IMG/VR virus record: IMGVR_UViG_3300016476_001378
Reading direction: 5' to 3' (one strand)
Length of the DNA stretch: 64,000 nucleotides
Source: a virus
Lineage: Duplodnaviria; Caudoviricetes
The stretch's first letter is position 1. Each line of letters begins with the position of its first letter. Below are positions 1 to 42,411 of the stretch, one piece after another. The notes under the pieces were generated by a model. The model searched no databases. It worked only from the letters and a program-made list of their open reading frames with translations, and was not told where the DNA came from. The translations under genes and the position numbers were made by a program.

Positions 1-3000
1 GACTGAAGAATAATAATTTACGTTGGAAGTACCAAGCACAAATGGTTCATCATAATGCATGTAGAATGTTAAATTTTTATTCTGTATACCACCAGTTACT
101 TTAACTCTTGGTGCTGCAATCATTTCTTCTGTTGTGTTAAAGCCTGCAGATCTTGTCCAGACACCATTTGAGCCAGTACCAACTGTAGTAACTTGATAAA
201 TACCATTTAGCTTGGAATCTTCTTGATTTTTAACGAGAATCAAATCCAAAGCTGACACTGTTTTGCCATCAACAACACTAGGTGCGCCTGTTGCTAAATT
301 CACAATATTTGCGGTAGTAGCATAGTCTACAGTTGTATCATACCCATCGCCAAGATCTAACTGGCGATTGATTCTCATCCTAACCAGCAGATAAGTATGA
401 GTGTCGGTGACAAAAGGAGTAAAATTAGAGGCCCCTATAATTGGATCTCCTGTTCTAGTGCCCACTGCGTTGTATGTGACTTCAAGATAGTGGCTTGTGC
501 CTGAACCTGTTGCAGGCTCAGCTGTAAAGTAAAGATCTGAAGTGCCAATAACAATAAATTCACTATTGGATAAGTAGAATGTTTTGCCTTTGTTCACAGT
601 ACCATTTTCAGCTGTTGATACATTGCCAACAGCAATATATGTATTCTTTAGCATTTCTGATTGCTCATCGAATAAATTCGAGCGAGTCAGAACACACTTA
701 ACACCTGTAGTGCCTACAGTAGATACATTATAGATGCCATTTTGCGCTCTGTTAGTTTGGTCTTTGACCAAAATGGTATTCTGGGTGTATGATGCAGCCA
801 AAACAACAGATGTTGCTGATTCTGTTGGATAATCCACTAAAGTTATGGATGTGCCTGTCGAAGGCAATGTAGCAATCTCACCTACGATTCTATCATTATC
901 AACATCATAAATAAAGCCTCCAACAGTTAGGCCAAAGTACTCAACATCGCCTAAGTCAATAGACAAATCAACTTGCTTACTTGTTGTGCTGTATGTCATG
1001 GTTGGAGAAAATAAAGTATACAATGTATAAGTGTATCTTCTGGATAAAGCAACTCCATCTATAGATACTGCACCTGCTGTGTTGTATGTCAACTTTGCGC
1101 CAATAGCTGGGGCAGTTGGTTCAGGTCCAGCGGAATAAGCTGCATCTAAATTAGCAGTTGTTGCTAATTTTACATTTATACTTCTACCAGTTGCTGGTGT
1201 TGTTTTTGCTGCAACTGTACAGAATTCAACAGCGCCCCAATCTTGTACAGAAGCTACACCCTGACCTTCAGGTTGGATTGGGTTTGTATCTTCTATTGAA
1301 TCTGTAAGCGCAAAATTCCACATTTTTAGCAAACCGCGATCTGGGAATTTTTGCTCAATTACAGAATATGGTGTGAAAATACTATCTCTGTTTAAGAAAG
1401 TTTTAGTTGTGGTATTATTACCACTGGTCACTGTAACGCCGGTTGTTGTCAATTGAACATTGATTAAATAATGACCATCTCCAATTTCAAAACCTTGTGA
1501 ACCGCTACCAGACTCGTGACGCATCTCAAACTCTAAAGTATAAGGTTCTAAATTAGTTTGTTGCCTATTGACAGCTTGCTCCCAGTCGGAACCTGTTTCT
1601 TGAGTAAACACAGTGGACTTGCCCAAGAAACCATTGATGTAAATGTACTCTTTTGTTCCGCTCTCGGCATACTTGCTGTCTATTGTCTTTGCGCCAACAA
1701 CATTTAATTTGTTTCTTGAATTGGTTTCACCATCATGATAAAATTGCCAAGCCCAACCCGCAGGGTCTGTTACAAATGCCTTGCTAAATTCAAGCACATT
1801 CCAGCTTGAATTATAGAAAGCAAATGAAGTTTGGTTAGCAGACCAAGAATTGGCACTAGAGTTAATGACAATTGGCTCTGTAGTGTTAAGGTAGAAAGTT
1901 AAATTAGCATTTGTGCTTCCTGCTGTAACAAATACATTTGTGTTTGGCAAGGCTTTATAATTTGTATCAAAATCTAAGGCCCTTGTTAGTTCAGTTTTTA
2001 CACTCCCTGTGCCAAGTCTTGTGACTGTATAAATGCCATTTTGTATAGCAGATGCTTGATTCTTAATTAAAATTCTATTCCCAAGGGCTACTGACACACC
2101 ATCTATGCTTAAAGTGCCTACAGCTGGCGCCACAAGCTTACCAGAGGCATAAACCCAAGTGCCTGACAGAGCAGCAGTTGTTGCGAGTCTTACATTTGTA
2201 AGCTTGTGTGTAAAGAAATTATTAACAACTTCATTATTAATGCCTGGGAGAGATCTAAGCTGCTCAGAGTAGCTATGAATTTCAGGCCTATCACCTATAG
2301 CTGCGACCACCTGATTTGCATAACTAATAATATCTGAAACTTGAAGAACGGAAGATTCATAATCATCTATGCCACTCTTGTTTAGATCTAGAACAAAAGT
2401 ATATTGCGATTCAGTGGTCGCATTTGTTTTGTTTAGTCTACGGGTGTATTTAAACACTTTGCCTTGCTTCGTGCCAAAGAACAAAGCATCGTATGCACTG
2501 GTTATGCTGGTCAAATCATAATTTGCGTCATACATTGGCTCTGACTTAATGCGCTCCCATGAATTTGAAAGAACATAATTATCAATAGGGGCCCTAAATA
2601 TATAACTCTTTGATGCAGTGCCAATATAAATGTATGATTTTGTTTCATGCATAAATTGGTGGAGAGTCATGCAGCTAATAGGCAGCGGATTCAAATCAAC
2701 ATCGGATGCTGTAAAAATAGGACCAACTATTTCTTTGCCATCAAATGACCAAACCTTGCCATTGCCTGACCCCAATAAAATCTTGTCACTAAGCGCAACC
2801 ATGCTTAAGATAGCACGTTCTCCTAAAGGACCAAGATCGACTACTCTTTCCAGCGTATTGTAATCCCATTTCCAAATTTGTGCGGCTGATCTCTCAACTA
2901 CACAATTAAATGTCGATGTGTAAGTGCCAGAAGGTAAGTTTTGGAATACTAAGTAACCAGTTTCATTATCAACATAGAACTTAGGCTCTGCTGTAATTGA

Positions 3001-6000
3001 ATCTGTGGCAGATGCTGCTCTGTTCCAAGTCGTGCCATTGACAGTCATAGTTATAGTGTCAATGTCGCCCAAAAATATCTTTCTATTATAAGTACCAGTA
3101 GATAAGGAAACAAGCTTGTATGCTGTCTCACCAGATGTTGACCAAGTTACACTATCAAATCTAATATTTGGTGTTGCAAATTCATTAAATTTAATAGCGG
3201 CCATGTACACAGCTTCTTTTGCCTGTGTTGGATCTGTCCATTTGATCGAATTATTTACAAGAATGTTCTTTGGAAATTCAGTAACGCCAAAAATGCTAAA
3301 ACTATTTCTAGTTAAATAAGTGTCTCGGGACAGTGTGTTCCAAACGCTGCTTGGTTGAGCGGCATTATTCCCATAATCTCTAACCTGAACTTCAATTCTT
3401 TTAATGCCATTTGGGTCTACAGATGTTGTTGTGCCACCACCTGAGCCACCTGAGCCACCTGAGCCACCTGAGCCACCTGTAGAGCCGCCTGCGTCTGTAT
3501 TTCCTGTGTTGCCTGTATTGCCACCTATAGGGTCAGGATTAGGATTGGTGCCAGGATCTCCTGAGGGCAGTGGTGGTTCTTCTGATCCAGAAACGGCGCC
3601 ACCAGATCCAGCAAATGCACTAAAGCCACCATTAAATGATGCGGAAACAACATCAAATGCTATTGGCTTCTTTGAAATTTCGGCATAAGGCTCCCAGTTA
3701 CTCCATGCACCTATGCCATTGCCATCAATAAGCCTAAAACGCATGTCTTTGACAGACGATACAGCATCCTGGCCCTCTATTTTTACATTAACAATTGTTT
3801 TGTTAGTATATTCAGACACAACACCATCTGGATCAATTATTGTAACTTCTGCTGATGGTGGCACAGTGTCGACCAATGAAATTAATTGAGCATTGACAGT
3901 TATAGGATAAGATTCAGATAAATTACCAGCATTATCAATAACTTCAACCCAAACTTTTCTGGGGCCATCTGTGCCCATGTTTTGCGGTGTATAGTTTGGA
4001 TCATCGACATAAGGATCTGTTGTTCCATCGGGATTTTTCCACCATGAACCATAATGATAGATAGTATAAACTATTTCATCATCTATAAGATTTCCAGAGA
4101 GATCTCTTTTCTTAAAAGAATCCCACTCAAGCCAATCTGTGTAAGAAATTTTACCAAAGTCAGTTTCCTTGCCAACCCTGAAAAGCCAGTTACCAGAATC
4201 TGCATCTGTCGCTCTTACATCCAACATTGTAGTTCTTACGGTTGGGTGAAGAACTGTAGTTACATAAGGTCTGTCAGATTCAGTGTTTACAGACAGGGTA
4301 GAAAGAATGGAAGGCGTATAGTACGGTGCAGAAATATCAACAGTCACTGCATCTGACAAACCCGAGGCATCAGATGAAACTAGAGCGTGGCTTTCTGCAC
4401 ATACTCTGAATTGCAAAGAAGCCTGATGAAAAACATTGTCATATCTTTCTCTAAAGCTATGGAAAAGCTTATACCAAAGAAGTGGAACAATTTGCCAACC
4501 AGTGCCCTGAACTTGACCAGCAGGTATGCCAGGCAATGCACTTCCACTGTAATTTACAAAAATTTCTGTTGAAATTTGATCAAATCCCTTTGCCCTTGCC
4601 AGACTCATGCCTCTTGGCAATTTGACAACCATCCAATATTTCGTACCCGCTGTTAGATTTGGTGCAGTGTCGTTGCCTAAGTTAAATTGAACTAAATTAT
4701 TATTTGGAATTTTATATCCAGTAAGTGCAAAGTCGGTTGAAGTCTCTTTTGCTGGTGCTATCCAGTCAGTGACAGCAGCGCCAATGTAACTATTACCAGC
4801 TGTTGTAGGTGTGGTGTATGCATAAATTCTAACTTCAGGATGTCTTGGTAAAACATTAGGGTCGGTTAAAGCATCTGTATCTTCAACCATAACTTCCAAA
4901 AGTTGAGGATATAAAGCAGTTTCTGTCAATGTTCTAGATCTAGGAATAAACTCCTGAACAATGTATTTATATTCAAGTGTGGAAGCCACAGAGGCCTTAT
5001 AGACATAGTCTCTAAACTCTGTATTGCCAGCAAGCATTAATTGGCCCAATAATGGCTTTTGGTATGCCGACCCACCAGTGCCTTTGATAAAATGTCTTTG
5101 ATTTGGCAGATCACTATTGCCAACAACTGCCTTGGGAACAAGCCCTGTAATTGAAATGTTCTTTAAAATAGCTCTTGAATTAACTGAGGTTGGAGAATCT
5201 ACCGCACCTCCAAAATCTAAATACAACTGGCTTCTAACACCCACTGCAACATGCCAACCCATACCCATTCGAGCCGTTGGTAAATCAGAAGTATGTTTAA
5301 AGTTAGCTATTGTTTCTCCATTGCGATTAATTATAATCCAAAGACCTTCACCGACAGAAGGAGTGTTACTGACAAGTATTTCAATGTTCTCACTTGTAGC
5401 GTCTGCTAGATATTCATAGGTTGAAATAATTTCGCTACTGACACTATTATCATTTTTGCGATGAATAAGACTGATGTTTTTATTAGTTTGATCAAATTTG
5501 ATCATGACAGTTGGCTTGTTTAAATTGCTGCTTGAATTTACATAGGCATCATCACATCTTGTACCCATGGGCTCTTCTGAAGCAAAAACTGGCCTTGGAC
5601 TTAATGCTACATAAAACTGGCCCTGAATCATTTGATAATCAAATGTAATCTTGGCTCTGTCAGAAAATGTTGGCATTTGTGAAAGTAACTCAGCATAAGA
5701 TCTGCCTGTGCCACTCGAAGTTTTCTTATCGACATCAAGGTCTGCCTTTAAGAAATAGCCCAATAATTCATCTACGCCAGAGCCAGAAGCTGGATCTGCG
5801 TCATAAACCGGGTCATTAAAACTAAGCTCTGTCCAAGTTCCATTATCTAATGCAGCTTGCCAACCCTCTTTAGTGGTATTCGTACTGACATTTGTATCTA
5901 TTTGTATGTCGTCATCTTTACAGTCGCCAAGATCTACATCTAATAAAATTCTTGCCGTACCTTGAGCCAATTCTTCAAGGGCATAAGTTAAACTGCCCGC

Positions 6001-7467
6001 GACAGATTCTATCAAAACATTTGCTTGGACATTGGTGGAAACACCCTCCCAGTCAGACATCGAATCCAAAGTTGCAGTGCCTAGTAAAAACGATTTAGTT
6101 TTATCAGAGAAAGGTGTGAAATATGATTTCACAATTCTTTTATTATCAAAAGCATTTGTTGGAGAAATTGCTGCTGGTCGAGCCAACTTAGTCATGTAAA
6201 GTTCAATGACGCCACCTTCTCTTAATTCTTTGACTATTGACTTAGATAATGTTGTAGTTTGTATTGTTGTTGCAGTAGTGCCAGTTCTCTTGATAATTTT
6301 AGCTGTAGGATAAGTATTCAAACCGTCATTCTGGCATTCGATCTTTATCTCAACTTCTTTGCAAGTAGAAGAGTTTGCAGCCTCATCTGCATTTCGAATA
6401 TTAAGCCTCAAAGAAACAGCATAATGAGATTGTTGATCCTTGTCAGCATTAATCGACAAAACTGTTTGAGCAAATAAATCTGGCTGTATTGTCAAATTCG
6501 GATCTGAATAGACAGCAGAGGGCGAATTAAATGCCACACCAGAATCTGATGACAAAGTGGCAGTGACAGTTGTATTAATTGAAACACTAGAGCTTGAAGC
6601 ATAAGTTCTAGTACTAGGGGTAAAATTTCTTTTTACAAGCGCAGGGGATGGAGTATTTGCACTAAAATTAGGGGCCAATGTTCTATTGGAATTTGAAGAC
6701 AAATTCGATGTTATCACATAAGCCAAGGGAGTAGCTGTGTCTGGCCCCCTTAATTCAATTAAATCACCTGTGTATCTAGCAACACCTGTGCCATAAAGAG
6801 CAGTAGCAGCCTCGTTGGCAGCATTAAATTTCCATAAAGCCTTACGGCCTGCATAATCTGGATTTCTTGCAATAATTTGTGGTAAACCTGGTCTAATGCC
6901 AGACTCAGGCTGCCAATAAATCTGATCAAAAACACCCATGTTGTTAGGGTATGTGCTTTGATCTCCGACAATAGACTCGGCTATTATCCTAAAATAAACT
7001 GTTGATAATCCACCATTACCAGAAAGCGGCCAGTTATTAATGATAAATAAATCATTACCAGCTTCTTCACTTCTTGCTCCTAAAGAAGTGTTATCTGGAT
7101 CAAAAAAGGCGACTGGGTCTATGTCAAAAATGTAATTTTTATTACTGCCAGTAACTTTATTTCCAATATTTGGGTCATACTCTGTTGAGTCGTAAGGCCA
7201 GTCAGTAATTGTTATTGTAGACGAAGGCAAGAAAAGTGGATCGTTGGAAAGCCGAATTGACTTAATAGTCTTAAGCTTAACAGGGTCTCTATTTTCAACA
7301 TCTACGAGTTCCAATCCAAATTTTAAAGTAACTTTATTGTTGTCAATGTAGGGTGAAAGATTTAACTTACCAGTAAAATAATTCTCGCCCTCGTTAAGGA
7401 CGAAATCATTGTTTAAAAAAGTATTGTTAAGATTTGGTGGAAGAACAAGTCTGATAGCATTGGGCAT
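1..7467 (-). CDS. Giant tail-tip/fibre virion protein, at least 2489 aa, runs off the left edge (absent from the ORF track)
   Basis: Hand translation from ATG at 7467 (MPNAIRLVLPP...) found no stop down to base 1 (...GTSNVNYYSSV), and the frame agrees at both ends. Contains Ig-like segments (VEVIDNAGNLS, VQVRDYGNN), a GGS linker, a propeller-like stretch and three ATTA..DG..IL[IV]K[ND]Q..NGIY fibre-type repeats. Confidence 0.85.
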   Translation of the reverse strand, partial: MPNAIRLVLPPNLNNTFLNNDFVLNEGENYFTGKLNLSPYIDNNKVTLKFGLELVDVENRDPVKLKTIKSIRLSNDPLFLPSSTITITDWPYDSTEYDPNIGNKVTGSNKNYIFDIDPVAFFDPDNTSLGARSEEAGNDLFIINNWPLSGNGGLSTVYFRIIAESIVGDQSTYPNNMGVFDQIYWQPESGIRPGLPQIIARNPDYAGRKALWKFNAANEAATALYGTGVARYTGDLIELRGPDTATPLAYVITSNLSSNSNRTLAPNFSANTPSPALVKRNFTPSTRTYASSSSVSINTTVTATLSSDSGVAFNSPSAVYSDPNLTIQPDLFAQTVLSINADKDQQSHYAVSLRLNIRNADEAANSSTCKEVEIKIECQNDGLNTYPTAKIIKRTGTTATTIQTTTLSKSIVKELREGGVIELYMTKLARPAAISPTNAFDNKRIVKSYFTPFSDKTKSFLLGTATLDSMSDWEGVSTNVQANVLIESVAGSLTYALEELAQGTARILLDVDLGDCKDDDIQIDTNVSTNTTKEGWQAALDNGTWTELSFNDPVYDADPASGSGVDELLGYFLKADLDVDKKTSSGTGRSYAELLSQMPTFSDRAKITFDYQMIQGQFYVALSPRPVFASEEPMGTRCDDAYVNSSSNLNKPTVMIKFDQTNKNISLIHRKNDNSVSSEIISTYEYLADATSENIEILVSNTPSVGEGLWIIINRNGETIANFKHTSDLPTARMGMGWHVAVGVRSQLYLDFGGAVDSPTSVNSRAILKNISITGLVPKAVVGNSDLPNQRHFIKGTGGSAYQKPLLGQLMLAGNTEFRDYVYKASVASTLEYKYIVQEFIPRSRTLTETALYPQLLEVMVEDTDALTDPNVLPRHPEVRIYAYTTPTTAGNSYIGAAVTDWIAPAKETSTDFALTGYKIPNNNLVQFNLGNDTAPNLTAGTKYWMVVKLPRGMSLARAKGFDQISTEIFVNYSGSALPGIPAGQVQGTGWQIVPLLWYKLFHSFRERYDNVFHQASLQFRVCAESHALVSSDASGLSDAVTVDISAPYYTPSILSTLSVNTESDRPYVTTVLHPTVRTTMLDVRATDADSGNWLFRVGKETDFGKISYTDWLEWDSFKKRDLSGNLIDDEIVYTIYHYGSWWKNPDGTTDPYVDDPNYTPQNMGTDGPRKVWVEVIDNAGNLSESYPITVNAQLISLVDTVPPSAEVTIIDPDGVVSEYTNKTIVNVKIEGQDAVSSVKDMRFRLIDGNGIGAWSNWEPYAEISKKPIAFDVVSASFNGGFSAFAGSGGAVSGSEEPPLPSGDPGTNPNPDPIGGNTGNTGNTDAGGSTGGSGGSGGSGGSGGGTTTSVDPNGIKRIEVQVRDYGNNAAQPSSVWNTLSRDTYLTRNSFSIFGVTEFPKNILVNNSIKWTDPTQAKEAVYMAAIKFNEFATPNIRFDSVTWSTSGETAYKLVSLSTGTYNRKIFLGDIDTITMTVNGTTWNRAASATDSITAEPKFYVDNETGYLVFQNLPSGTYTSTFNCVVERSAAQIWKWDYNTLERVVDLGPLGERAILSMVALSDKILLGSGNGKVWSFDGKEIVGPIFTASDVDLNPLPISCMTLHQFMHETKSYIYIGTASKSYIFRAPIDNYVLSNSWERIKSEPMYDANYDLTSITSAYDALFFGTKQGKVFKYTRRLNKTNATTESQYTFVLDLNKSGIDDYESSVLQVSDIISYANQVVAAIGDRPEIHSYSEQLRSLPGINNEVVNNFFTHKLTNVRLATTAALSGTWVYASGKLVAPAVGTLSIDGVSVALGNRILIKNQASAIQNGIYTVTRLGTGSVKTELTRALDFDTNYKALPNTNVFVTAGSTNANLTFYLNTTEPIVINSSANSWSANQTSFAFYNSSWNVLEFSKAFVTDPAGWAWQFYHDGETNSRNKLNVVGAKTIDSKYAESGTKEYIYINGFLGKSTVFTQETGSDWEQAVNRQQTNLEPYTLEFEMRHESGSGSQGFEIGDGHYLINVQLTTTGVTVTSGNNTTTKTFLNRDSIFTPYSVIEQKFPDRGLLKMWNFALTDSIEDTNPIQPEGQGVASVQDWGAVEFCTVAAKTTPATGRSINVKLATTANLDAAYSAGPEPTAPAIGAKLTYNTAGAVSIDGVALSRRYTYTLYTLFSPTMTYSTTSKQVDLSIDLGDVEYFGLTVGGFIYDVDNDRIVGEIATLPSTGTSITLVDYPTESATSVVLAASYTQNTILVKDQTNRAQNGIYNVSTVGTTGVKCVLTRSNLFDEQSEMLKNTYIAVGNVSTAENGTVNKGKTFYLSNSEFIVIGTSDLYFTAEPATGSGTSHYLEVTYNAVGTRTGDPIIGASNFTPFVTDTHTYLLVRMRINRQLDLGDGYDTTVDYATTANIVNLATGAPSVVDGKTVSALDLILVKNQEDSKLNGIYQVTTVGTGSNGVWTRSAGFNTTEEMIAAPRVKVTGGIQNKNLTFYMHYDEPFVLGTSNVNYYSSV
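3437..3479 (-). repeat. 9-bp tandem repeat (ccacctgag, about 4.8 copies) encoding a Gly-Gly-Ser linker
   Basis: Read directly. In frame it gives TGGSGGSGGSGGSGGG. Confidence 0.95.
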
Positions 7468-7544
7468 TTTTATTAAACCAGAGATGAAGTTTTGTTTTCT
7501 AAGTTTAATTATTCTTTATACAAGATGGCTTGTACCTGTTAGAA

Positions 7545-15686: not shown

Positions 15687-16232
15687 TTAATTTTTAGGTG
15701 CAATAACCATAGACATGGCCTTGCCATCCAAAACTGCTGGCTTTTCTATAATAGATATTTCTGATGTAGCTTCCACAATCCTGTTAATTAATTTTTCTGC
15801 GAATTCTGGATAAGCTATTTCGCGGCCTTTGAACTTAATTAAAATCTTAACTTTGTCTCCATGTTTGAGAAATTTAATAGCATTATTGACTTTCACTTTA
15901 AAGTCATGCTCTTCAATGCTCATGCCAAAGTTTAAAATTTTTAAATCAGATTGCTTGGAAGAATTATGTAAATCTCTTTGCTTTTTCGATTGTTGATATT
16001 TATATTTGCCATAATCAACAATTTTACAAACTGGCGGTGTGGCGGTCGGAGCAATTTCAACCAGATCTAAACTAAGCTCCCTTGCCATGTCAAGTGCCTT
16101 ATTTGCACTTACCACACCCTTTTGCTCACCATTCTCATCAATTAAACGAACTTCTCGCAGCTTTGGGAGGTTATTGAAAAATCTCAAAATTTGTTCGTTA
16201 ATTCGTGGTTCTTGCAAATCTCTATCTGTCAT
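15687..16232 (-). CDS. infC: Translation initiation factor IF-3 (phage-encoded)
   Basis: INEQI, EVRLIDENGEQ.GVV, LDLVEIAP.A.PPVCKIVDYGKYKY and HDF.VK....KFL..GDKVK..I.F.GRE motifs. Full two-domain length, ATG start, SD AAGGA. Confidence 0.96.
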   Translation of the reverse strand: MTDRDLQEPRINEQILRFFNNLPKLREVRLIDENGEQKGVVSANKALDMARELSLDLVEIAPTATPPVCKIVDYGKYKYQQSKKQRDLHNSSKQSDLKILNFGMSIEEHDFKVKVNNAIKFLKHGDKVKILIKFKGREIAYPEFAEKLINRIVEATSEISIIEKPAVLDGKAMSMVIAPKN

Positions 16233-20648: not shown

Positions 20649-23600
20649 TCAACTATTTAACATGTCTAAATACATTTGTTCAATCATTTTTCTGTAGACT
20701 ATTCTTAGTTTTTTCTCATGGTCTATTTGCATTTGATTGAATTCGTATTTAAGTTCTCTTTCTATTCTTTGTCTTAATAAGAACTCATCTATTTCTTTCG
20801 CGCTTTCGTTTTCTTTTTGCTTTTCTTGAATCATTTGAATGATCTTTGTAGCATCTATGAAAACTTTTTCGGGGCCCTTTTCTTGTGATGTTTTAATGGC
20901 CTCCAATGTTTCTTTTTGAGCAACCTTGTTTGCTTCTTGCTGTCTTTCTTGAACATTCTGAATAGTATTTTGTATACTTTCAGTTTCGCGTTCAAGGGCG
21001 AATTCTCTATCTTCTTTGATTATAGACTGGATAATCTGATTAATAGGGCTTGAATTTTCACTTTCGGCCTCCAAAGGCTGCTCAGTTATAACCTTAACAA
21101 GTTCCTGCTGAATCTGCTGCTCTGCTCGTCTAAGATTAGCCCTGTTGTTACCTCTCTCATTCTCCAGATTTGCTCTAAATCTTTCTCTTTCTTTTAATAA
21201 CTCTTGATAAATTATACTTTCAGAACTCAAAGCTTCTTTTATCTGCTGAGTGGTAGCTGAATCTGTTGGCTGGTCTTTTGGAACTTCAGTTTTCATTAGT
21301 GTATCACCACCAACTGTGATGTATTTTACACTTTTGAGCTTTACATTGTTTTCGTCTTCTTCTTCAGCTTCTGAAGAGCCGCTTGCGCTAACCCCAGTAA
21401 TAACAGGATTTAAAGGTCTAGGCTGTTGCTGCTCTATTCCCTGATAGTCAAATTGTGTCAACCCTGAAGCCTCTTGGGTCTGCGGTATAAGTCCTTCGTT
21501 TATAATTTGCTCTGAGATTTTTTCTATGTCTCTCGGCTGCAAAGCATTATTTAAATTAATTCTACCAGGCTGTTGCACATTGTCTTCAGCGGCATCGTCC
21601 GGTCTTGAGGTGCGTCTATTGACTGCAAACAATCTAGGTATGGAAGTTTCGGGACTATCTGTCCCTGACTCACCAACCTGAGGAGCCTGTGGCAATGACA
21701 CCTGTTGCAAACTGGTTAAATCTTGCCCTCTGGTATTTCCTTGCCCTTGTTGAATAGTAGCATCAAAAATACCACCAGTTTGTGCAGATTGCCCAGGAAT
21801 ACTTCCAAAATCATTTTGTTCTGCTTGGCCAGATTGTGTCTGAATAGAAACTTCTTGAACTCCAGCAGGTGATAAAATTGTATTTCCAGCTGTACCAGAG
21901 CTTAAATTAATTCTATCTCTTCGTCTCTCTTGTGCTTCCTCCTGTGTTGCAAAGCCTGGCGCTTGACTTTCTGGCAAGGCTTCATAAGTTGTTTGATTTA
22001 AATTATCGTTTGCAGAAGATGGCAAAACTTTGCCATTTGAATCAATCTGAGGAGAAACATTTATTTGATCTGTAACAGAATAAACTTTAGACTGCTGAGA
22101 TACTAACTCGGGACTAGATACTGCATCAGTTGTTATTGTACCCTGGACATTCCCATCAGCATCAAGAGTTTGTCTAGTGTCTGCCTGGGTACCTTGAGCC
22201 GTTTGGGCTTCAGGCAAAGATACCATTTCTGGAGAATTAATTCTAGTCGCGAACTGACCAGATGCTTGTATGGCTTCTGAAATCGCCTGGGAGGCTTCAG
22301 CTTGGACAGCTTGAGTTGCCGCTTGAACGGCTTGAGCTGTCACCTGAGATGCTGCTGTTTCTATTACTTGAGAAGATTCGCTCTGAGCAACCTGAGGTGC
22401 GGATAGGTCAGTTCCAGATGTAGCTGATGCTTCTGTACCAGATGCAGCTGATGCTTCTGCGCCAGGGCGATTTCCCATGTTATTTACGGGCTGGCCAGTT
22501 ATAGGGGAAACAGAAGCCTCTAAATAGTTTCTTTGTGCATCTGGAGTGGAGCCTTCAAAACCTGGAAGTTGCACTTGCTCAACGCCATCAGGCCCCTGTT
22601 GATTTACAAATTGTGGGTTAGGCTGCTCTACAAAAACACCATCTTCATTATAATACCCAGGTGTAGGCTGTGTGTTAGAGCCTAAATTATCGCCAGGAAT
22701 CTGCCCGGCTCTTTGGATGGAAATTCTTCCACTCTGATTCTGCTCTATTGCATTAAGTGTTGCTTCTGTTTGCTCTAATGTTTCATCTAATGCCTGAATA
22801 GCATCAGATGCCTGTCCTAATCCAGAAGCCTGTGCAAGTTCTTGGTAAGTTAATTGCTTTAAATCATCAGCTTCTGCTGGGCTTTCAGAGTTAACAATTG
22901 ATGATTCTAAATTTTGAGCATCTTGAATAGTGTCTCTAATAACAACTCTTGCCGCATCCTGGACAGTATCAACTAGTCCTTGTGTGGTTTCTTGAATGGA
23001 CTCACTTGCAACTTGGGCTGCAGTTGTAACAGACTCTTTAATGACACCTTGTATGGTTTCTCCTGTTACCATTTGAGAAACTTGCTGCATCGAGCCTTCA
23101 GCAATTTGCTCAGCTGTTTGTAAAGCACTCTGTGTTACGGCGCGAGAGACATCTTGTGAAACTTGCTGTATTACATTCTGCCCTACAATCTGTTCTGTTA
23201 TTTTATCTGCTATGTCTGCGGCGTTTTGAATAACTTCTTGTGCTGCATTAGCCACTGCATTCTGTGCTGTTGACTCCAAGACATTTTGGACTACATCCTG
23301 AACGGAGTCTACATTGGAATTTTGCAACGCACCCTGAACAGCTCTCTGAGCTGCATCTTGGGCCGCACTTTCTGCAACACCCTGAGCTGTAGCCTGAGTG
23401 GTATTTTGAAGTGTGTTAATAGCCGCATTTTGCGATGCAACTTGATCTGCTATTTGAGCTGAGCCTTGGTAAAGAACTCTGTTTGCAATTTCTGCTATTT
23501 TATTTACTGCTACAGTTGCCCCAATAACATTACCATTGTCATCATAAATAGGCCCATCAGAATTATTGACTCTTGCCTTAATATTTTCAACCGCTTCTTC

Positions 23601-24812
23601 ATAAGCTTTCGTGCCTGGTTGTGCATAAAAAGTTGTTCCATCATCATTGTAAAAAACACCCGTTGAAACAGATGTCAATAATTTTTGATAAACGGGGCCC
23701 TTTAATTCATCTTTAGTCTCAGATTGACCAACCTGCCCAGACTGGGGCTGATTTTGATCTGTGGCATCAGAAGCCAATCCTAGATTTTGGGCTAAATTTT
23801 GTATTCCTCTGCTTACATTTTGGGCCAGACTTTGAAATCCCTGTATTATCCTGGGGCTTTCTTCTGATCTTTCCGATACAGATTGATTAGGCTTATTGTC
23901 TTGTGCAGGAGTTGTAAGGCTTGTTTGATTGACTGTTGTGGTCTGATTACCTAAAATCCCTTCTTCAGATGTGTTTTCCCCAGTTGTTTCTGCAGCTGAC
24001 ATAGTTGTGCCAGTAACATCATTGATTGATTGCCCTGGCACAGATGGTGATACCGCGCCTTGATTATTTGGCTGAGCCAGGGTGCTAGTTTGGTTAGCAA
24101 TTTCTGTGCTCTCAGAAGGATTCGCTTGCGCTCGAGGTTGTGCAACGTCCTGTTGTTCTGTCGAAATTAATGACTCTACAGTTGTTTGTAAAATAGAATC
24201 ATTTTCATTAAAAGGGGCCTCTTGATTAAATATTTCCGATTGGCTTGCTTCACCTAATGGCTGGAATTCAGTTTCTGTTAAGTTGTCGGCATTTGTCTCA
24301 TTTTCAATTTTGTTAATAAATTCTGGAGACTCCATTGACTGGCCAGGTATGGAACCTACTTTACCGAGTGTAACTGCGTTGGACTCTAAATTGCTAAGTT
24401 CGTTGCTATTACCTTCACTGATGCTTTGGCCAACACTATCTAAGTCAATGACAACAACTTCTTCCTCTAGGGGTTGAGAGGACTTGGGTTGGGCTGGCTT
24501 GACGTTTGCCCTAAAGGGTTGAAGAGTTGTTTTGTTGCTTGAAATTTCTACAGAATAAGACCCACTCTTAACACCAACTTTGCCAAGGTCAATAATTTGA
24601 CCAGATGTTAATGTTCCATCAAAAGTCCCTGCTACTTTACCAAAGCCATCTACAAATCTAACTTGGTATGATTCGCCAGGTTCCCCTAAATCCTTACCAG
24701 AAAAAGCTACATTGCTGCCTTCTGAGAATTCTATAGAAGAAATTTGAGGTGTATTTTGTGTGGCTGTTTGATTAACTATATTGTAATCTTTTTTTTTACC
24801 CCAGAGGGGTTT
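20649..24812 (-). CDS. Long Q/E/A-rich low-complexity protein; frame open from 24812, first ATG at 24335; possibly reached by slippage from the upstream ORF
   Basis: The track ORF 20649..24335 extends 159 sense codons upstream with no ATG/GTG/TTG, up to TAA at 24813-24815. Helical AQ-rich middle and coiled-coil C-terminus. Confidence 0.75.
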   Translation of the reverse strand, partial: KPLWGKKKDYNIVNQTATQNTPQISSIEFSEGSNVAFSGKDLGEPGESYQVRFVDGFGKVAGTFDGTLTSGQIIDLGKVGVKSGSYSVEISSNKTTLQPFRANVKPAQPKSSQPLEEEVVVIDLDSVGQSISEGNSNELSNLESNAVTLGKVGSIPGQSMESPEFINKIENETNADNLTETEFQPLGEASQSEIFNQEAPFNENDSILQTTVESLISTEQQDVAQPRAQANPSESTEIANQTSTLAQPNNQGAVSPSVPGQSINDVTGTTMSAAETTGENTSEEGILGNQTTTVNQTSLTTPAQDNKPNQSVSERSEESPRIIQGFQSLAQNVSRGIQNLAQNLGLASDATDQNQPQSGQVGQSETKDELKGPVYQKLLTSVSTGVFYNDDGTTFYAQPGTKAYEEAVENIKARVNNSDGPIYDDNGNVIGATVAVNKIAEIANRVLYQGSAQIADQVASQNAAINTLQNTTQATAQGVAESAAQDAAQRAVQGALQNSNVDSVQDVVQNVLESTAQNAVANAAQEVIQNAADIADKITEQIVGQNVIQQVSQDVSRAVTQSALQTAEQIAEGSMQQVSQMVTGETIQGVIKESVTTAAQVASESIQETTQGLVDTVQDAARVVIRDTIQDAQNLESSIVNSESPAEADDLKQLTYQELAQASGLGQASDAIQALDETLEQTEATLNAIEQNQSGRISIQRAGQIPGDNLGSNTQPTPGYYNEDGVFVEQPNPQFVNQQGPDGVEQVQLPGFEGSTPDAQRNYLEASVSPITGQPVNNMGNRPGAEASAASGTEASATSGTDLSAPQVAQSESSQVIETAASQVTAQAVQAATQAVQAEASQAISEAIQASGQFATRINSPEMVSLPEAQTAQGTQADTRQTLDADGNVQGTITTDAVSSPELVSQQSKVYSVTDQINVSPQIDSNGKVLPSSANDNLNQTTYEALPESQAPGFATQEEAQERRRDRINLSSGTAGNTILSPAGVQEVSIQTQSGQAEQNDFGSIPGQSAQTGGIFDATIQQGQGNTRGQDLTSLQQVSLPQAPQVGESGTDSPETSIPRLFAVNRRTSRPDDAAEDNVQQPGRINLNNALQPRDIEKISEQIINEGLIPQTQEASGLTQFDYQGIEQQQPRPLNPVITGVSASGSSEAEEEDENNVKLKSVKYITVGGDTLMKTEVPKDQPTDSATTQQIKEALSSESIIYQELLKERERFRANLENERGNNRANLRRAEQQIQQELVKVITEQPLEAESENSSPINQIIQSIIKEDREFALERETESIQNTIQNVQERQQEANKVAQKETLEAIKTSQEKGPEKVFIDATKIIQMIQEKQKENESAKEIDEFLLRQRIERELKYEFNQMQIDHEKKLRIVYRKMIEQMYLDMLNS

Positions 24813-25429
24813 TTAGACATTGAGTCAGGGACATAAAGCCTTGGAGATTCTCTCATCCTTTGGCTTGCAGAAATCCTATCTGGATTATTTTCTGATCTAT
24901 TTTTTGCCTTTAGTTTAGCAGACAATGTAACTTCTGTTGGAACAGACATACCTGTCTTTTTCATAAGGCCAATAACATTAGGGTCCGCTGCGACAAAGTC
25001 ATTCATTGCCTCAGATTCAAAGTCATGATAAATTGTATCTTGATTTGACTCATTTTGGAACTGGTTGATTTTTGTATATTTTTCTTCTGCTCTAGGATAA
25101 GCTATCCCAGCATCAACTTGTTGTTTTTGGTCATTAAAAAGAGGAAATTCTGGCCTCTCCTTTGATGTAAGTAAAGGCTTGTTATCCTGAGATGAAGGGA
25201 CATACCTGCGAGTAATTCTCATAGGAGCTCGCCCTAAAGGGGCATCAGGAAACTGCTCACTATCTTCATCGACAGTATACATAGTAACAGGCAAGGGTCT
25301 GGCATGAAGTGCTGATCCAGAAATAACAGGTTCGTATGCGTCTGTCAAGCCTACTTCCAATTGAGAAGCATCAACGTATTCGGATTCGTCAGGTTTAATG
25401 ATAGATGATAGTGAGAATCTTTTTGCCAT
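24776..25429 (-). CDS. Hypothetical protein, 217 aa, ending just after an A9G slippery site
   Basis: ORF ends GGG GTA AAA AAA AAG ATT ACA ATA TAG. Confidence 0.75.
   Translation of the reverse strand: MAKRFSLSSIIKPDESEYVDASQLEVGLTDAYEPVISGSALHARPLPVTMYTVDEDSEQFPDAPLGRAPMRITRRYVPSSQDNKPLLTSKERPEFPLFNDQKQQVDAGIAYPRAEEKYTKINQFQNESNQDTIYHDFESEAMNDFVAADPNVIGLMKKTGMSVPTEVTLSAKLKAKNRSENNPDRISASQRMRESPRLYVPDSMSKNPSGVKKKITI
24788..24797 (-). other. Candidate -1 frameshift or transcriptional slippage site (A9G, containing A_AAA_AAG)
   Basis: Lies inside the 37-nt overlap where the -1 frame has opened (24812) and the 0 frame has not yet closed (24776). Confidence 0.6.
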
Positions 25430-25487
25430 GTTTTTACTTTTAAAAAAATAATTTGAACCACATATTGCAGTGGTTCAAATTATACAG

Positions 25488-25709
25488 TTATTTTGGTTCT
25501 TCTTTTTTGAACCTATTTGTAGCCTTCTTTTTAAATCTACTTTTTCTATGCTTTGCGGTATCTTCTTCAACAGTTAAATCACCATGTTTGGGTTTTTCTT
25601 CAACAATTGTTCCCCAGGGCACTGGACTTTTAGACTGTTCCATTAAAGAGTCCCAATAGGATTTCCATCTAGCATCACTTGTTACTTCTTTATCCATAAT
25701 TAGCCTCAC
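25488..25709 (-). CDS. Small basic hypothetical protein, 73 aa
   Basis: GTG start overlaps the upstream TGA (GTGA). Lys/Arg-rich C-terminus. Confidence 0.6.
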   Translation of the reverse strand: MRLIMDKEVTSDARWKSYWDSLMEQSKSPVPWGTIVEEKPKHGDLTVEEDTAKHRKSRFKKKATNRFKKEEPK

Positions 25710-27646
25710 TTTTTACCCACAGCAACTGGGGTATAATTTACCTGACCTCCACCAAGACCTGTTTTTGCAAGATTTTCCATTAACATTTTATTATTTTCAA
25801 CTTCTTGCTTGACAGCAGCTTTGTAATAATTACTTGCATTTTTAGCCATTGATTCGCCCATAGGACCATGACCTGTACTAGCTTGTAAGGCCTGAGAAAT
25901 CTGCATAAGCAAATTAACAATCTTCTTACCTGTTTCCCAGGTGTTTTTAATAGCAATCGGTCTAGTGACTCTTGTATTAATTGTTTTTGTTTTGCCACTT
26001 CTATCTGTTGTTGTTTTCAAATTGTTTACCATTAAGGCTGATATTGGCGCATCTAATTGTGCTTTATTGGTATCATATTCTTCTTTTAACTCAAAATATT
26101 CTAATTCTTTTGGAAGAACTTTTCTTTGTATTTCCAAGTCTTGTTTAATTGCTTCAAGATCCTGGAGCATTGCTGTAAATTTCATTTCATTCAAAGAAAT
26201 AGTATCGCTTTGGGCTGACAATTGTTCAGAACCAGATACAGGATTGCTAATCCATTTTTTAGATTCACTTATAACAAGATTAATTTCTTCCTTCTGCTTA
26301 TTAATTTCTCTTAAAGTCTCATCAATTTTTTTAACAACATTTCCAGATGTAACCAAACTTGAAAATAATCCCAAGTCTCCAGATAGGCCCTTGGTCTTCT
26401 GTTCGCTTATATTGTTAATTTGCTTTAAATTATTTTCAATGACTCTTTGTCTTTGTTCAATCAGTGCTGATTTTCTGGTAATAAGATTACCAGCTGCACG
26501 AGCTGCCTGCTCCGCAGGAGACAATGTGCCAGAACTAGTTGTTGAAGTGGTTGTAGAAGACGTTCCACTTCCCGATGCTCCGCTTCCTGATGCTCCAGCT
26601 GAAGCACCTGCTGCTAAAATAGTTTTAAATAACTTGCTTGAACCTTTACGCCTTTTACTATTTAGATCTATACCCAGCGCATCTAAACCTTCTAGGCCTT
26701 TTGTTATTCTGTCTACTAGGCCTTTCTTTTTCATTTCAACCCTAATTAAATTTTGTATAAAAGCACCAGCATCAAAAGTTCTATCTTTTATTTCTTTTTT
26801 GGCATTTTCTAATTCCAAAATATTGGTTTCCATAAACCATGCCAAAAAGCTTCTATAAAAAATTTCAAACGCGGTAGTTAATTCATTCTGAGCCTTCATA
26901 TTTCTTATAGCAAGTGCCATGTCTTCTGTAGGTGTGCGTGTAAGCTCCATAACTGTAGCAACTTGTGACACTGATTTAGAAAAATCATTCGGATCTATCG
27001 GAGTTTTGGACCAAATTGATTTATAAAAAGGCAAAGAAATTAATAAGTTTTGATATTTTGTAAAATTTCCAGTATTTATGGCATCTAAAGCAACATTCAT
27101 AATGTATTCTGGGGTAAAAACAGGTGCTCCATCTTGCATAGATTCGAATAATTTCTTACTCCACTCCAAAACATCTTGTGGGTTACTAAATGTCTTAGCA
27201 GCTTTGGAAATAAAATTAAGAAATGTATCCCATGTATATCTTCCACTCCAAGCAGGCCAAACTTGTAAAATCATTGCAATGGCAGCATCTTCAGGTATAG
27301 ATGAATCTGCTGTTATTTTTGCAATTACAGTATCGGCATATATTTCAGCAGGCGACCTTGTACCAGGGCTCGGTGGCTTATCATCAAGGCCTTTCATAGG
27401 TTTAATGATTTTAGAAATTAATTCTTGCTTATTAGATGCTATTGTTCGTTGTTGATCTATAATGCCTTCGACTGCCTTCGCCGCAGAACCAGGCTTTGTC
27501 GTAAAATCAAATATGGCCTCGTTTATTGCGCCTTCTGGACTTGATGGCGCGCCCAACCCTTGGGTCATCTGCACGATTCCGGATTGTAGTTCGTCTGAGT
27601 CAGGTAGTGGCCAGATTGCTAATCTATAATTTCTTTGTTCAGGCAT
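25706..27646 (-). CDS. Alpha-helical/coiled-coil hypothetical virion protein, 646 aa
   Basis: Long ORF with two helical halves joined by an AGASAGASGSGASGSGTSSTTTSTTSSG linker. Confidence 0.7.
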   Translation of the reverse strand: MPEQRNYRLAIWPLPDSDELQSGIVQMTQGLGAPSSPEGAINEAIFDFTTKPGSAAKAVEGIIDQQRTIASNKQELISKIIKPMKGLDDKPPSPGTRSPAEIYADTVIAKITADSSIPEDAAIAMILQVWPAWSGRYTWDTFLNFISKAAKTFSNPQDVLEWSKKLFESMQDGAPVFTPEYIMNVALDAINTGNFTKYQNLLISLPFYKSIWSKTPIDPNDFSKSVSQVATVMELTRTPTEDMALAIRNMKAQNELTTAFEIFYRSFLAWFMETNILELENAKKEIKDRTFDAGAFIQNLIRVEMKKKGLVDRITKGLEGLDALGIDLNSKRRKGSSKLFKTILAAGASAGASGSGASGSGTSSTTTSTTSSGTLSPAEQAARAAGNLITRKSALIEQRQRVIENNLKQINNISEQKTKGLSGDLGLFSSLVTSGNVVKKIDETLREINKQKEEINLVISESKKWISNPVSGSEQLSAQSDTISLNEMKFTAMLQDLEAIKQDLEIQRKVLPKELEYFELKEEYDTNKAQLDAPISALMVNNLKTTTDRSGKTKTINTRVTRPIAIKNTWETGKKIVNLLMQISQALQASTGHGPMGESMAKNASNYYKAAVKQEVENNKMLMENLAKTGLGGGQVNYTPVAVGKK

Positions 27647-38671: not shown

Positions 38672-41062
38672 ATGGCAGACATTAATGAGGAATTTATTGC
38701 AGAATACGCAAGAGTTGTGGGCAATGCTTTTACGGCTATAGACAGCGGCATTGGCGATGAAAATACTCCTGGGTCAGCAATTTTTACCCTAAATCAACTT
38801 TCGTTTTTGGCAGACAGAAAGCTACCAGCTTTTGGAATTGTCCAAAACATGAATTCAACAGGATTTACAGTCACTGTAGATGAGAATGATCCTGCTTTTA
38901 TTAAAGTTAGTTCTGGTCAAATAGCCTATAAAAACAATAACATTAATGTGCCATCGCAAAGAGTTTCTATAGTAAGAACTGTTGTTGGAACTTATAACAA
39001 CACTGATGTTTATGGCATGAGAATTGGTTTCCCATATTCTGAAGCAGTTAAAACATCTGGTCAAATTTATTCTTCAGTTTTGACACAAACAACTTCAATG
39101 ACCTCAAATGTTGTTTATGTTGAAAACCCACAAAGAATTATTGATTTAGGATTCCCTATAACAGCATACATTGGCAGCAATACCTATGTGGTATTTAATG
39201 GAACAAATGCAGACAACACGGGATTCACAATAGATCCAGCAATCAATGGTGGATTTCTGCCAACAGTTTTTGATGAAGGCACTAATGTAAATTTCATTTA
39301 TGAGCCTAAAATCAAGGCCATTTACGGACTTCCAGTCCCTGTTGCATCTAATGACCCAAGTGCTTTTAAATATTATCCTAATTTGCCATCTGACTGGTTG
39401 CCCATAGCTGACATTCTAATAGAAAATCCAAATGATCCTGCTGTGGCAATTTTTGGATCAGATAATGCAATTTTAAGAACAGCTATTGATTATCCGCCAG
39501 TAAATTCAGCAACACCTATTTTTTCTGATACAGATGCACAAATTATTGCAAGCTCTATAAAGGTTGCAAAATCTCAATTAGTAAGTAACAAAGACAGAGC
39601 TTCTGTATCTGAGGCTGTAAGAGCTTTAGAAAATTACACAAGTGCCCTCCAAACAAATGCAGGATTAGGCTTTAGACAATTTTGGGGAGCAAGGCCGTTA
39701 AAGCAAACAACTTACTACAATAAGGGTGTTAGCTATGAAGGGCTTGAAAGATTTGAATTTAGTGACAATTTCTCTCAGGCATATTATGAATTGTCTGGGA
39801 GAGACACTCAGAAAACATTGGGTTTCTTTAGGGGAGATTTGTACGGCAGCCCATCTGTTATTGCTGGCAATGCTCCGAGTAGTATCACGACGGGTACAAA
39901 AGACACATTCATCGGAACAACAAGTAGTCTTACAAGAGGCACCTATACTTATGGTGTAAGTGCAGTTACTTCTGCGGGCGAAACACCAGCTACATACAAA
40001 TCTGTAATCACATCCAGTACAGGCTCTACAAATTTAAATACAATACAATGGCCTTCAGTTTCAGGGGCCCTATTTTATCATGTATACAGAAGATCAAATA
40101 CTTCTGGCGAACAAGTAGAATACAGATTAACCACACCTGGTGAGATTACCGGCACTGGTACATTTGTAAATTCTCCAGTAACACCTAACGATACTTACAG
40201 CTTGACAACATCTGGTGTGGCATTTAAAATCACACCCAGTGGCTCCACGCAATTTGGTGGCATTTTATTCCAGATGAAAGCCACAGACTATTCGCTTACA
40301 AACATCAATGATTATGTATCTGTAAAACTCTACAGCAATAATGTTTCAACATCAAAGCCGAATGCACAAGTTTTGGACTTGGGCACTGTTACATTCGGTT
40401 CAATTATCAGAAATGCAAATGGAGATTTGACAACAGACTTCCAGAAAATAATCTGCCAAGCTGATTATAAGCTAACCACAGGTAACATTTACTGGGTTGT
40501 ACTTTCATTGTCAAATGCAGCTTCCACTGGTAACATACAGATTCATGTAAATAACTCAACTGCCACAGGTCAACTTGCAACTTACTCCAGCCCAAACTGG
40601 ACACTTGTAAATAACAAGACAGCATATTATGAAGTACTAGGCTACATTGACAATGGAAGAACTGGTTCAAATGCAATTTCAAGAGGTGTTTATTTAACCG
40701 GAAAAACAACTTTGGAACCAAGGCGCTTAAGAATTTATTTACCAGAAATTGAAAGTTTCCCAACAAGGGTTAATGCTCTTTACGGCGATGGCGCAACGAC
40801 AACCGAGACCGCTATTACAAAAAATGAAATGCTGGTTACTGTTGTCGCGCAACTAGGGTCAGACACGCCTGTTACGTTGCCAACCATCACAATACCACAA
40901 GGCACACCGAGCGGTTCAAGTTTCTTACTAGGATCAGCAAGTCAAATTTTTGACAGAATTGTAGATTTAAGAGTTGTTCCTGGAGCTAATGTTGTAAGAA
41001 AAGCCCAGAATGCAATCTATTGGTCTAAGTATGATACATTTGTAGTGGAGAATATTCCATAA
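38672..41062 (+). CDS. Virion structural protein with FN3-like and beta-sandwich domains, 796 aa
   Basis: TYTYGVSAVTSAGET..IQWPSVSGALFYHVYRR and LTTGNIYWVVL. SD GAGGT. Confidence 0.7.
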   Translation: MADINEEFIAEYARVVGNAFTAIDSGIGDENTPGSAIFTLNQLSFLADRKLPAFGIVQNMNSTGFTVTVDENDPAFIKVSSGQIAYKNNNINVPSQRVSIVRTVVGTYNNTDVYGMRIGFPYSEAVKTSGQIYSSVLTQTTSMTSNVVYVENPQRIIDLGFPITAYIGSNTYVVFNGTNADNTGFTIDPAINGGFLPTVFDEGTNVNFIYEPKIKAIYGLPVPVASNDPSAFKYYPNLPSDWLPIADILIENPNDPAVAIFGSDNAILRTAIDYPPVNSATPIFSDTDAQIIASSIKVAKSQLVSNKDRASVSEAVRALENYTSALQTNAGLGFRQFWGARPLKQTTYYNKGVSYEGLERFEFSDNFSQAYYELSGRDTQKTLGFFRGDLYGSPSVIAGNAPSSITTGTKDTFIGTTSSLTRGTYTYGVSAVTSAGETPATYKSVITSSTGSTNLNTIQWPSVSGALFYHVYRRSNTSGEQVEYRLTTPGEITGTGTFVNSPVTPNDTYSLTTSGVAFKITPSGSTQFGGILFQMKATDYSLTNINDYVSVKLYSNNVSTSKPNAQVLDLGTVTFGSIIRNANGDLTTDFQKIICQADYKLTTGNIYWVVLSLSNAASTGNIQIHVNNSTATGQLATYSSPNWTLVNNKTAYYEVLGYIDNGRTGSNAISRGVYLTGKTTLEPRRLRIYLPEIESFPTRVNALYGDGATTTETAITKNEMLVTVVAQLGSDTPVTLPTITIPQGTPSGSSFLLGSASQIFDRIVDLRVVPGANVVRKAQNAIYWSKYDTFVVENIP

Positions 41063-42411
41063 TGCCCGATTACAATGAATTTACATCTGGTTTTGGGATA
41101 CCGCATTTAGGCAGTGGCTTCAATGATGTTGTAGCCTTTGTTTTTGATTCTCCAAGAGAAACGTCTGTCAATGCCACTGCTAATTCCATTGATGCAAAAA
41201 ACATTTTAGAAACAAAAAATTTTAATTTTGCAATAAATCAAAAATCAGTTTCTGGCGACAGGTATGCAGGCGAAGGCGCAGACCAAAGCATGCTTTCTAT
41301 AGGCAATGTTTCCTTAAGTGCATCTTTGACAACACCATTGTTTCAAAGCCAAACCGGATGGGTTACTCCTATTTTTGCAACTCTCTGGGATAGAACAAAG
41401 TTATCCTGGTGGGGGACTGCAGGGGCATGTAAAGGTAATTTAATAACCAACGCCTCTTCTGGCGCAACCTATTTAGAAACAGATAACATTTCTGATTTTG
41501 CTTCGCTTCCAACGCCTTTTAATTTAAATATCCTAACAGATACAGAAACGCCCGAAACTGTTATTGTTTCTTCAGTAACCAAGGCAACAAGAAGATTAAA
41601 CTTAAGCAGCCCTACTGTTAATGCTCATACAGCATCTGAAACAACACTTGCTTGCCTGCCTTATAATTTAACAAACGGCCCAATAAGAGAACCAGCATTT
41701 TCATTAATGTCACTCAGAGAAGGTATGCTGTCTCCATGCCTTGTGGATAAAATGACTATAACAGCAAATGCTGGAGAGCCAGTACAAATAGAAATGTCAT
41801 TTAAGGCTTTGAACATTTATCGCGACAGACAGATGGACATGAACAATAGAAAGCAAGAATTAATTTCAAATGCCTTTTCCATTCATGACCCAAATAGAAT
41901 AATAAATGGAACTATGGTTAGATTGTCACTATCTAGTTATAATTCTGGCAATTTTGGATTACCAACAGCGCTTGGGGATCAAATTTTGGCTGGCTTTCAA
42001 GGGTTGCAAATAAATGATTTTACCATAACAGGTGTAACACTTACAATTGAAAATCAATTAAAAGAAATTTATACTTCGCATTCTATAAATAGAGATGTAC
42101 AATTAAGAAGAAGAGAAAATACCTACCCTTATGCTTTGGCTTCAGAGGGAAGAATAATTTCTGGTAAAATAAGGTATAGATCACCTATAGATTTCTGGAG
42201 CAACTTTGAAAAAATAGCGGGCCCCAGTTCTATTAATGGTGGTGGTCTCTTAATAGATTTTGGTTCATTCAGCATAACTATGAATGAAATAGCATGGCAG
42301 CCTTCTACAAGTGAAGGAAACATGACTTCCCAAAATAGAGAGATTAGTTTCACTATGATTGCAGAAAATAGAAACGCTATGCCTGTACTTGATTTTTCTC
42401 AGCAGGGATAA
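41062..42411 (+). CDS. Tail-tube-like protein 1 with an inserted accessory domain, 449 aa
   Basis: Tube-fold patterns CLVDKMTITANAGEPVQIEMSFKA and ITGVTLTIENQL...EGRIISGKIRY. Confidence 0.6.
   Translation: MPDYNEFTSGFGIPHLGSGFNDVVAFVFDSPRETSVNATANSIDAKNILETKNFNFAINQKSVSGDRYAGEGADQSMLSIGNVSLSASLTTPLFQSQTGWVTPIFATLWDRTKLSWWGTAGACKGNLITNASSGATYLETDNISDFASLPTPFNLNILTDTETPETVIVSSVTKATRRLNLSSPTVNAHTASETTLACLPYNLTNGPIREPAFSLMSLREGMLSPCLVDKMTITANAGEPVQIEMSFKALNIYRDRQMDMNNRKQELISNAFSIHDPNRIINGTMVRLSLSSYNSGNFGLPTALGDQILAGFQGLQINDFTITGVTLTIENQLKEIYTSHSINRDVQLRRRENTYPYALASEGRIISGKIRYRSPIDFWSNFEKIAGPSSINGGGLLIDFGSFSITMNEIAWQPSTSEGNMTSQNREISFTMIAENRNAMPVLDFSQQG

Follow-up and report, generated by a model that had tools for sequence, protein, structure and literature searches.

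The 64,000-nucleotide (nt) stretch of tailed-phage DNA studied here, hereafter the window, comes from IMG/VR record IMGVR_UViG_3300016476_001378 (Duplodnaviria; Caudoviricetes). On its minus strand, an open reading frame (ORF) of 217 amino acids (aa; 24776..25429) is, with high confidence, the first part of a longer gene that yields two products by programmed recoding at a run of nine A's (A9; 24789..24797), whether the polymerase or the ribosome does the shifting. As the main mechanism we lean towards slippage of RNA polymerase on the run. The existence of the long product, its mechanism and its ratio to the short form are inferred from sequence.

The recoding site and its two frames

The run appears as T9 on the plus strand, and the minus strand reads GTA AAA AAA AAG ATT ACA ATA TAG. 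The TAG (24776..24778) ends the zero frame four codons past the run, and an A_AAA_AAG heptamer lies inside the site (24788..24794). The -1 frame is closed by a TAA just upstream (24813..24815), opens at 24812 and is stop-free into an ORF annotated with 1228 aa. Counted from the site, the extension has 1,379 codons (20649..24788) and takes in that whole ORF, whose annotated start is the first ATG of the -1 frame (24333..24335); no ATG, GTG or TTG precedes position 24335 in the -1 frame of the window. A one-base shift at the run joins 214 and 1,379 residues into a fusion of 1593 aa (about 172 kDa), with the short product of 24 kDa as its N-terminal domain. A -1 ribosomal slip and one added A yield an identical junction. 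The original prediction of a slip site fusing the two ORFs into about 1593 aa, including the opening at 24812, the upstream stop at 24776 and GTA AAA AAA AAG in the overlap, was borne out by the frames, and natural single-ORF relatives match the fusion. By itself the run is not above chance in the 64-kb window, where an order-3 Markov model expects 2.5 runs of nine (one found) and 0.8 runs of at least ten (none found). The case for recoding therefore rests on conservation.

Conservation of the site

We found 36 homologues of the 217-aa ORF. The motif KKK is invariant, 3-8 residues from the end, in the 34 full-length aligned homologues (55-97% identity). At the DNA level, exactly A9 followed by GATT is present in the window and in all 29 close loci that cover the junction. 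In the same 29 loci the -1 frame then stays open, over about 1,000-1,200 codons where the locus is complete (1,008-1,222), and the +1 frame closes within five. A profile search extended the family to distant relatives at approximately 18-33% identity. Four distant split lineages, read as DNA, all place the A9 in the phase seen in the window and leave the -1 frame open; their sites are TTA AAA AAA AAC (67% GC), GTA AAA AAA AAC, ATA AAA AAA AAG and GTA AAA AAA AAG (60% GC), and in the loci of 60% and 67% GC the A9 is the only run of eight or more. The -1 extension of distant relatives spans 247-647 codons, and the zero-frame stop lies 0-7 codons past the run's third codon in all relatives. Overall, exactly nine A's in one phase, NNA AAA AAA AA(G/C), occur in 21 of 21 distinct split-gene sites, down to about 22% protein identity, followed by G in 19 and by C in two. 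These sites are related and represent perhaps 7-9 independent lineages; the count is of sites read as DNA and leaves out the split-type relatives P0005, P0041 and P0056, whose DNA was not read.

The wobble A ahead of the lysine codons is fixed in five different codons (GTA, GCA, CTA, TTA and ATA), and the probability of that wobble A together with AAA arising by chance is 0.02-0.39 per lineage. Synonymous difference is nil over codons 210-216 in the 17 distinct close sites, compared with 0.44 for the gene on average, and the gene outside the site is near synonymous saturation. Apart from the sites themselves, the 364 kb of these phage loci contain a single run of nine and no run of ten. That run belongs to the same N-terminal gene in locus L035 (2909-2917), 224 nt upstream of the site. 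Regarding the proposed check of A9 against A10, contigs of three studies besides the possible source cross the run without a one-base indel, although contigs hide rare variants. A check of the overlap in relatives gave a concordant picture, the homologues keeping the slippery site and having no common start codon in the -1 frame. One locus, L022, has a lone CAA-to-TAA change at extension codon 573 relative to a 99.3% identical sibling, which we treated as an isolated variant or error.

The start-less gap and the extension

The apparent gap of 440 nt between the two annotated ORFs had been read as an open, protein-like frame lacking a start codon, and this reading holds. Six pairwise comparisons of the first 300 nt past the stop place most changes at third codon positions of the -1 frame. 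Between the window and L009, 39 of the 51 changes in the gap are at such positions, with 35 synonymous versus 12 non-synonymous codons, and the other frames have 7-8 stops. By this substitution pattern, purifying selection acts on the -1 frame of the gap. It encodes an immunoglobulin (Ig)-like, seven-strand beta-sandwich (24498..24737), modelled by AlphaFold2 with a predicted local distance difference test score (pLDDT) of 85-92 over the strands and with Ig-like Foldseek neighbours. The annotated start of the 1228-aa ORF lies downstream of this domain and is not conserved: the first ATG, GTG or TTG of the -1 frame occurs 62-656 nt beyond the zero-frame stop, varying by locus, and no near-cognate start common to the homologues' -1 frame was found.

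By composition, most of the remaining extension is a long acidic linker rich in Q, S, T, N and E (21231..24460), probably disordered, whose length varies from about 100 to over 1,000 residues across relatives. It is followed by a conserved C-terminal domain (20652..21230; alignment A3), probably helical, which has two charged segments and ends in LNS. The extension has an isoelectric point of 4.3 and no hydrophobic segment. The Ig-like domain is optional, as it is not seen in L036 or P0049. In the long form, conserved N- and C-terminal domains thus flank an acidic linker, with an optional Ig domain ahead of the linker. A monomer model of the 217-aa protein itself was of low confidence (pLDDT 58; predicted template modelling score 0.20).

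Relatives with a single ORF

In six relatives (P0040, P0045, P0049, P0051, P0054 and P0055), a single ORF encodes the N-terminal domain together with parts of the extension; P0052 is similar in appearance and gives no score with the domain profiles. With the profile of the split-type C-terminal domain, P0040 reaches 62 bits, P0049 47 bits and the P0051 group 25-27 bits, and the Ig profile finds three copies in P0045. P0040 is syntenic, since it precedes the orthologue of the 1454-aa gene that neighbours the recoded gene and lies near a gene for translation initiation factor 3 (IF3). Its DNA has no A run at the junction; among the fused relatives, DNA was read for P0040 and not for P0045, P0049, P0051, P0052, P0054 or P0055. 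The only apparently longer match, P0038, is a 1.7-kb low-coverage contig that joins an unrelated membrane protein to the C-terminal half, and was judged a chimera. The natural in-frame fusions indicate that the long form is the evolutionary unit and that the short form is an addition absent in some lineages. In the tree, P0040 is sister to the close split clade (99/97) and lies among other split lineages. The simplest reading of this placement would be an old site that was lost in P0040. Repeated gain of the site in several lineages is possible, as the tree is unrooted and has long branches.

Mechanism of recoding

Under the polymerase slippage that we favour, standard decoding would stop at codon 217 and release the short product. 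In a fraction of its products, RNA polymerase would add an A on the nine-A run, and the A10 message, normally translated, would give the 1593-aa fusion through the Ig-like domain, the acidic linker and the C-terminal domain. In the clade of the window, the slip may be assisted by a hairpin that forms in the nascent RNA directly against the 5' end of the run.

Several features argue for this route. Nine A's is the length of efficient slippage by bacterial RNA polymerase (PMC5009743; PMC1088944), and the run is pinned at nine, never A8 or A10. The wobble A is fixed, though the A_AAA_AAG heptamer does not need it. In E. coli, A_AAA_AAC is far less shift-prone than A_AAA_AAG (PMC5009743), and here the final G is replaced by C in two lineages that have neither a 3' hairpin nor an element resembling a Shine-Dalgarno (SD) sequence. 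Runs of nine or ten are nearly absent elsewhere in the 364 kb of loci. Directly 5' of the run, the mini-hairpin ACCCC-TCT-GGGGT (24798..24810) is a candidate, clade-restricted slippage stimulator. Compared with synonymously randomised sequence, it is stronger in 11 of 19 sites (p 0.000-0.03; p 0.007 in the window), and it uses the rare codon GGG, where an SD would favour GGA. Ending one base before the run, it has the geometry of the slippage stimulator of Roseiflexus IS630, a nascent hairpin 5'-adjacent to the slip site (PMC5009743). Finally, no ribosomal stimulator is common to all sites, which also favours slippage.

Other observations weigh against polymerase slippage as the main mechanism. 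The mini-hairpin is weak, at approximately -5 to -7 kcal/mol, and 8 of the 19 sites do not have it; it is missing from the L004/L014/L024/L025 group and from the distant lineages. The phase A_AAA_AAA_AA(G/C) is identical in all sites, which slippage alone does not need, and 19 of 21 end in A_AAA_AAG, the most effective -1 motif in bacteria. For the ribosome, the three additional A's could just as well provide a second slip point (A_AAA_AAA, then A_AAA_AAG). A hairpin of -10 to -13 kcal/mol, in the geometry of dnaX, stands 7-9 nt past the heptamer in L015, L017, L018 and L026, and in weaker form in L023. The 21 sites are moreover kin, so that the uniformity of the run may represent as few as the 7-9 lineages given above.

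These observations make -1 ribosomal frameshifting at two successive tandem-slip points a serious competitor as the main route, alone or as a contributor, though we rate it less probable than slippage. The fixed phase, the predominance of A_AAA_AAG and the zero-frame stop close behind the run suit it well. In the sub-clade with the 3' hairpin, an A-to-G change in L023 keeps a pair as G-U, and the addition of Ig-like extensions through ribosomal frameshifting has precedents in phages (PMC5009743). It is opposed by AAC in two lineages, by the pinning of the run at nine and by the lack of 3' structure in the window, L009, L006 and L035-L037; the earlier statement that no strong downstream stimulator is present is thus correct for this genome. 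An SD stimulating a dnaX/IS3-type shift usually lies 10-14 nt upstream, and the window has none at that spacing. The one SD-type candidate, GGGGT, is mis-spaced at 5 nt from the P-site codon and matches the anti-SD no better than synonymous alternatives do (p 0.35-0.6), and it was rejected. The heptamer does not discriminate between the mechanisms, since any A9 contains one. The A_AAA_AAG motif of the original prediction is indeed there, but the conserved unit is the whole A9, and two lineages have A_AAA_AAA_AAC. Both mechanisms are known to act on A runs in insertion sequences (IS) and dnaX (PMC3711429), and they may act together here.

Explanations without recoding

Taken together, explanations that dispense with recoding are quite improbable. 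The first is that the downstream ORF has its own non-canonical start (ATA, ATT or CTG), perhaps coupled to the stop and helped by the IF3 that the phage encodes three genes downstream, and that no fusion is made. An ATA or CTG does overlap the zero-frame stop in 11 of 19 sites, but any -1 codon that overlaps a stop has the form N-T-R, which makes the coincidence mechanical. The overlap codon is never ATG, GTG or TTG and is TTA or CTA in several loci. An ATA or ATT start had been raised before; the homologues share no such start, the invariant A9 is left unexplained by it and six relatives have both halves in one ORF, which makes this explanation very unlikely.

Slightly less likely again is phase variation, also suggested earlier, with the tract alternating between A9 and A10 as the DNA is replicated. 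Long homopolymers are hypermutable (PMC1088944), and assembled contigs mask minority alleles. However, A8 or A10 occurs in none of the 35 site-bearing sequences (the window, 29 close loci and five distant ones), and P0040, the fused relative read as DNA, has no A run at the junction. A sequencing or assembly error hiding a true A10 gene can practically be dismissed, error-prone as homopolymers are and despite the existence of single-ORF relatives, given the codon conservation at the site and the same split at the same A9 in independent assemblies of many studies and in lineages of about 22% identity.

Genomic context and possible function

The window represents the part of an uncultured jumbo-phage genome that holds the virion genes, and its DNA is detected in metagenomes of freshwater, river and estuary; a close homologue of the recoded gene sits on a 446-kb contig. 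The major capsid gene (47821-48681) is 51% identical to gp27 of Bacillus phage G, and portal and maturation-protease genes are also present. The recoded gene keeps its place before a conserved gene of 1450-1600 aa, and lies two genes downstream of a 356-aa gene with a weak match to head-completion/adaptor proteins (scores 0.84-0.87). A gene on the minus strand (15687-16232), within the structural region and three genes downstream of the recoded gene, encodes IF3 and is retained in several relatives, including L039. The best database matches of this IF3 (42-49% identity) are scattered over many phyla, so no host was assigned. A gene at 41062-42411 is, as we take it from reading its sequence, tail-tube-like; PHROG gave no match.

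The 217-aa ORF has no match in Pfam, PHROG, PDB or Atlas, and these searches gave no function for it. Cultured phage records contain no match to this ORF or to the C-terminal domain, nor to the neighbouring genes of 356 aa and 1454 aa, and scans of IMG/VR and GTDB returned no relatives. Because it sits among conserved virion-module genes, near the possible head-completion gene, it probably has a role in virion assembly in which the slip would set the ratio of short to long form. For such a functional ratio, lambda G/GT and tssM offer precedents (PMC5009743; PMC4256274). Our best guess from the domain layout is a late assembly or virion protein that acts as a flexible tether joining two binding domains. 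A tape-measure protein was considered but not taken up, since neither the N-proximal Ig domain (three in P0045) nor the acidic low-complexity linker nor the absence of a hydrophobic segment speaks for one; all three count against this identity.

The leader of the gene (25448..25486, minus strand) combines a TGTATAA motif, a candidate late promoter, with a perfect 14-bp hairpin followed by a T run (25448-25483) between the motif and the ATG. TGTATA(A) precedes the recoded gene in all 22 loci examined, distant ones included. On the sense strand, TGTATAA also stands shortly before gene starts, the portal's among them (-25486, +31060, -46557, -51142, -57987 and -7522). The window total of 11 is at chance level and the placement alone is suggestive of a phage late promoter. 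The leader hairpin, retained in a single clade with a stem of 14-16 bp and loops that vary, could be a terminator, a processing site or a translation-control element. No SD was found at the start of the recoded gene.

Some further features of the region were recorded. The portal gene (55631-57955, minus strand) has a C-terminal nuclease-like domain (PHROG HNH/homing matches), and the 383-aa gene after the capsid gene (46576-47727, minus strand) presumably encodes a LAGLIDADG homing endonuclease, to judge from how it reads. An ORF of about 2,490 codons (1-7470, minus strand) runs off the start of the window and was missed by the default ORF list. The slot of the 646-aa upstream gene (25706-27646, minus strand) is held by two genes of approximately 320 and 350 aa, abutting or 4 nt apart, in L001 (7933-9947) and L006 (7920-9951). 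In L036 (8733-10697) and L039 (7308-9872 and 11569-12738), a PolyA_pol/HD gene, tRNA nucleotidyltransferase-like, adjoins the conserved large gene, and L039 also has IS605/TnpB.

Comparison with known systems

If slippage is the route, a close counterpart is dnaX of Thermus thermophilus, where programmed transcriptional slippage occurs on a run of nine (PMC5009743; PMC1088944). Both genes have a nine-base run within the coding sequence, close stops in the other frames and two products sharing an N-terminus. In T. thermophilus the long product comes from the templated frame and slippage shortens it, whereas here the templated frame gives the short product and slippage would add about six times its length. 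The phage gene also resembles tssM1 of Citrobacter rodentium (A11) and tssM3 of Yersinia, in which slippage restores the full-length form; in C. rodentium both forms and their ratio are important (PMC4256274). There, too, an A run stands just before a premature stop and relatives encode the full-length form as one ORF. The tssM sites, however, are sporadic among type VI secretion clusters, while the A9 split persists through deeply diverged lineages of a phage protein family that is unannotated and unrelated to tssM.

If the ribosome does the shifting, the gene works like E. coli dnaX and IS3 or like the phage genes with shifted Ig-like ends. Ig-like C-terminal extensions made by ribosomal frameshifting are known from the T3 capsid, Lactobacillus phage A2 and the Listeria phages A118, A500 and PSA (PMC5009743). 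As in those phages, the first domain past the shift is Ig-like, and in-frame and shifted versions coexist among relatives. In contrast to them, the carrier here is neither the major capsid protein, which is encoded elsewhere, nor a tail-tube protein, and it matched no known family; the Ig domain is optional, and the conserved part is the far C-terminal domain, which the in-frame relatives also have.

The original prediction pointed to the -1 shifts that tailed phages use for G/GT chaperones, and as an analogy, with gpG/gpGT of lambda, this stands: in a morphogenesis region, a small gene has a conserved -1 shift close to its 3' end that gives a longer form, in lambda the minor product (PMC5009743). 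No test tied the gene to tail chaperones: searches of Pfam, PHROG, PDB and Atlas gave no match, and the low-confidence model of the 217-aa protein allowed no comparison of folds. Nor, to the extent that its surroundings could be read, does the gene sit between those for tail tube and tape measure; no tape-measure gene was recognised, and the tube-like gene is 16 kb away on the other strand. The extension is 250-1380 aa long. With E. coli dnaX and IS3 the family shares the heptamer in 19 of 21 sites and, in one sub-clade, a 3' hairpin at 7 nt; it differs in that this genome has neither an upstream SD at the usual 10-14 nt nor a 3' hairpin, and the run is three bases longer than needed. Our literature search, which left most subscription papers outside, found no description of this protein family and no programmed polymerase slippage in a tailed-phage assembly gene.

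We tentatively propose, at odds that fall somewhat short of even, an ancient, family-wide slippage site in a core morphogenesis gene of G-like jumbo phages, at which the polymerase, rather than the ribosome, would determine how much of a short adaptor is made relative to a long, tethered form. The mechanisms themselves are already known, which limits the surprise. For the whole uncharacterised family the gene model is corrected, two 'hypothetical' genes and a 440-nt gap becoming one gene with two products, and a folded domain was hidden in the apparent gap. The recoding cassette takes up about 25 nt. As published phage recoding is credited almost wholly to ribosomes, a site held at nine A's over deep divergence offers a natural test of polymerase slippage in tailed phages.

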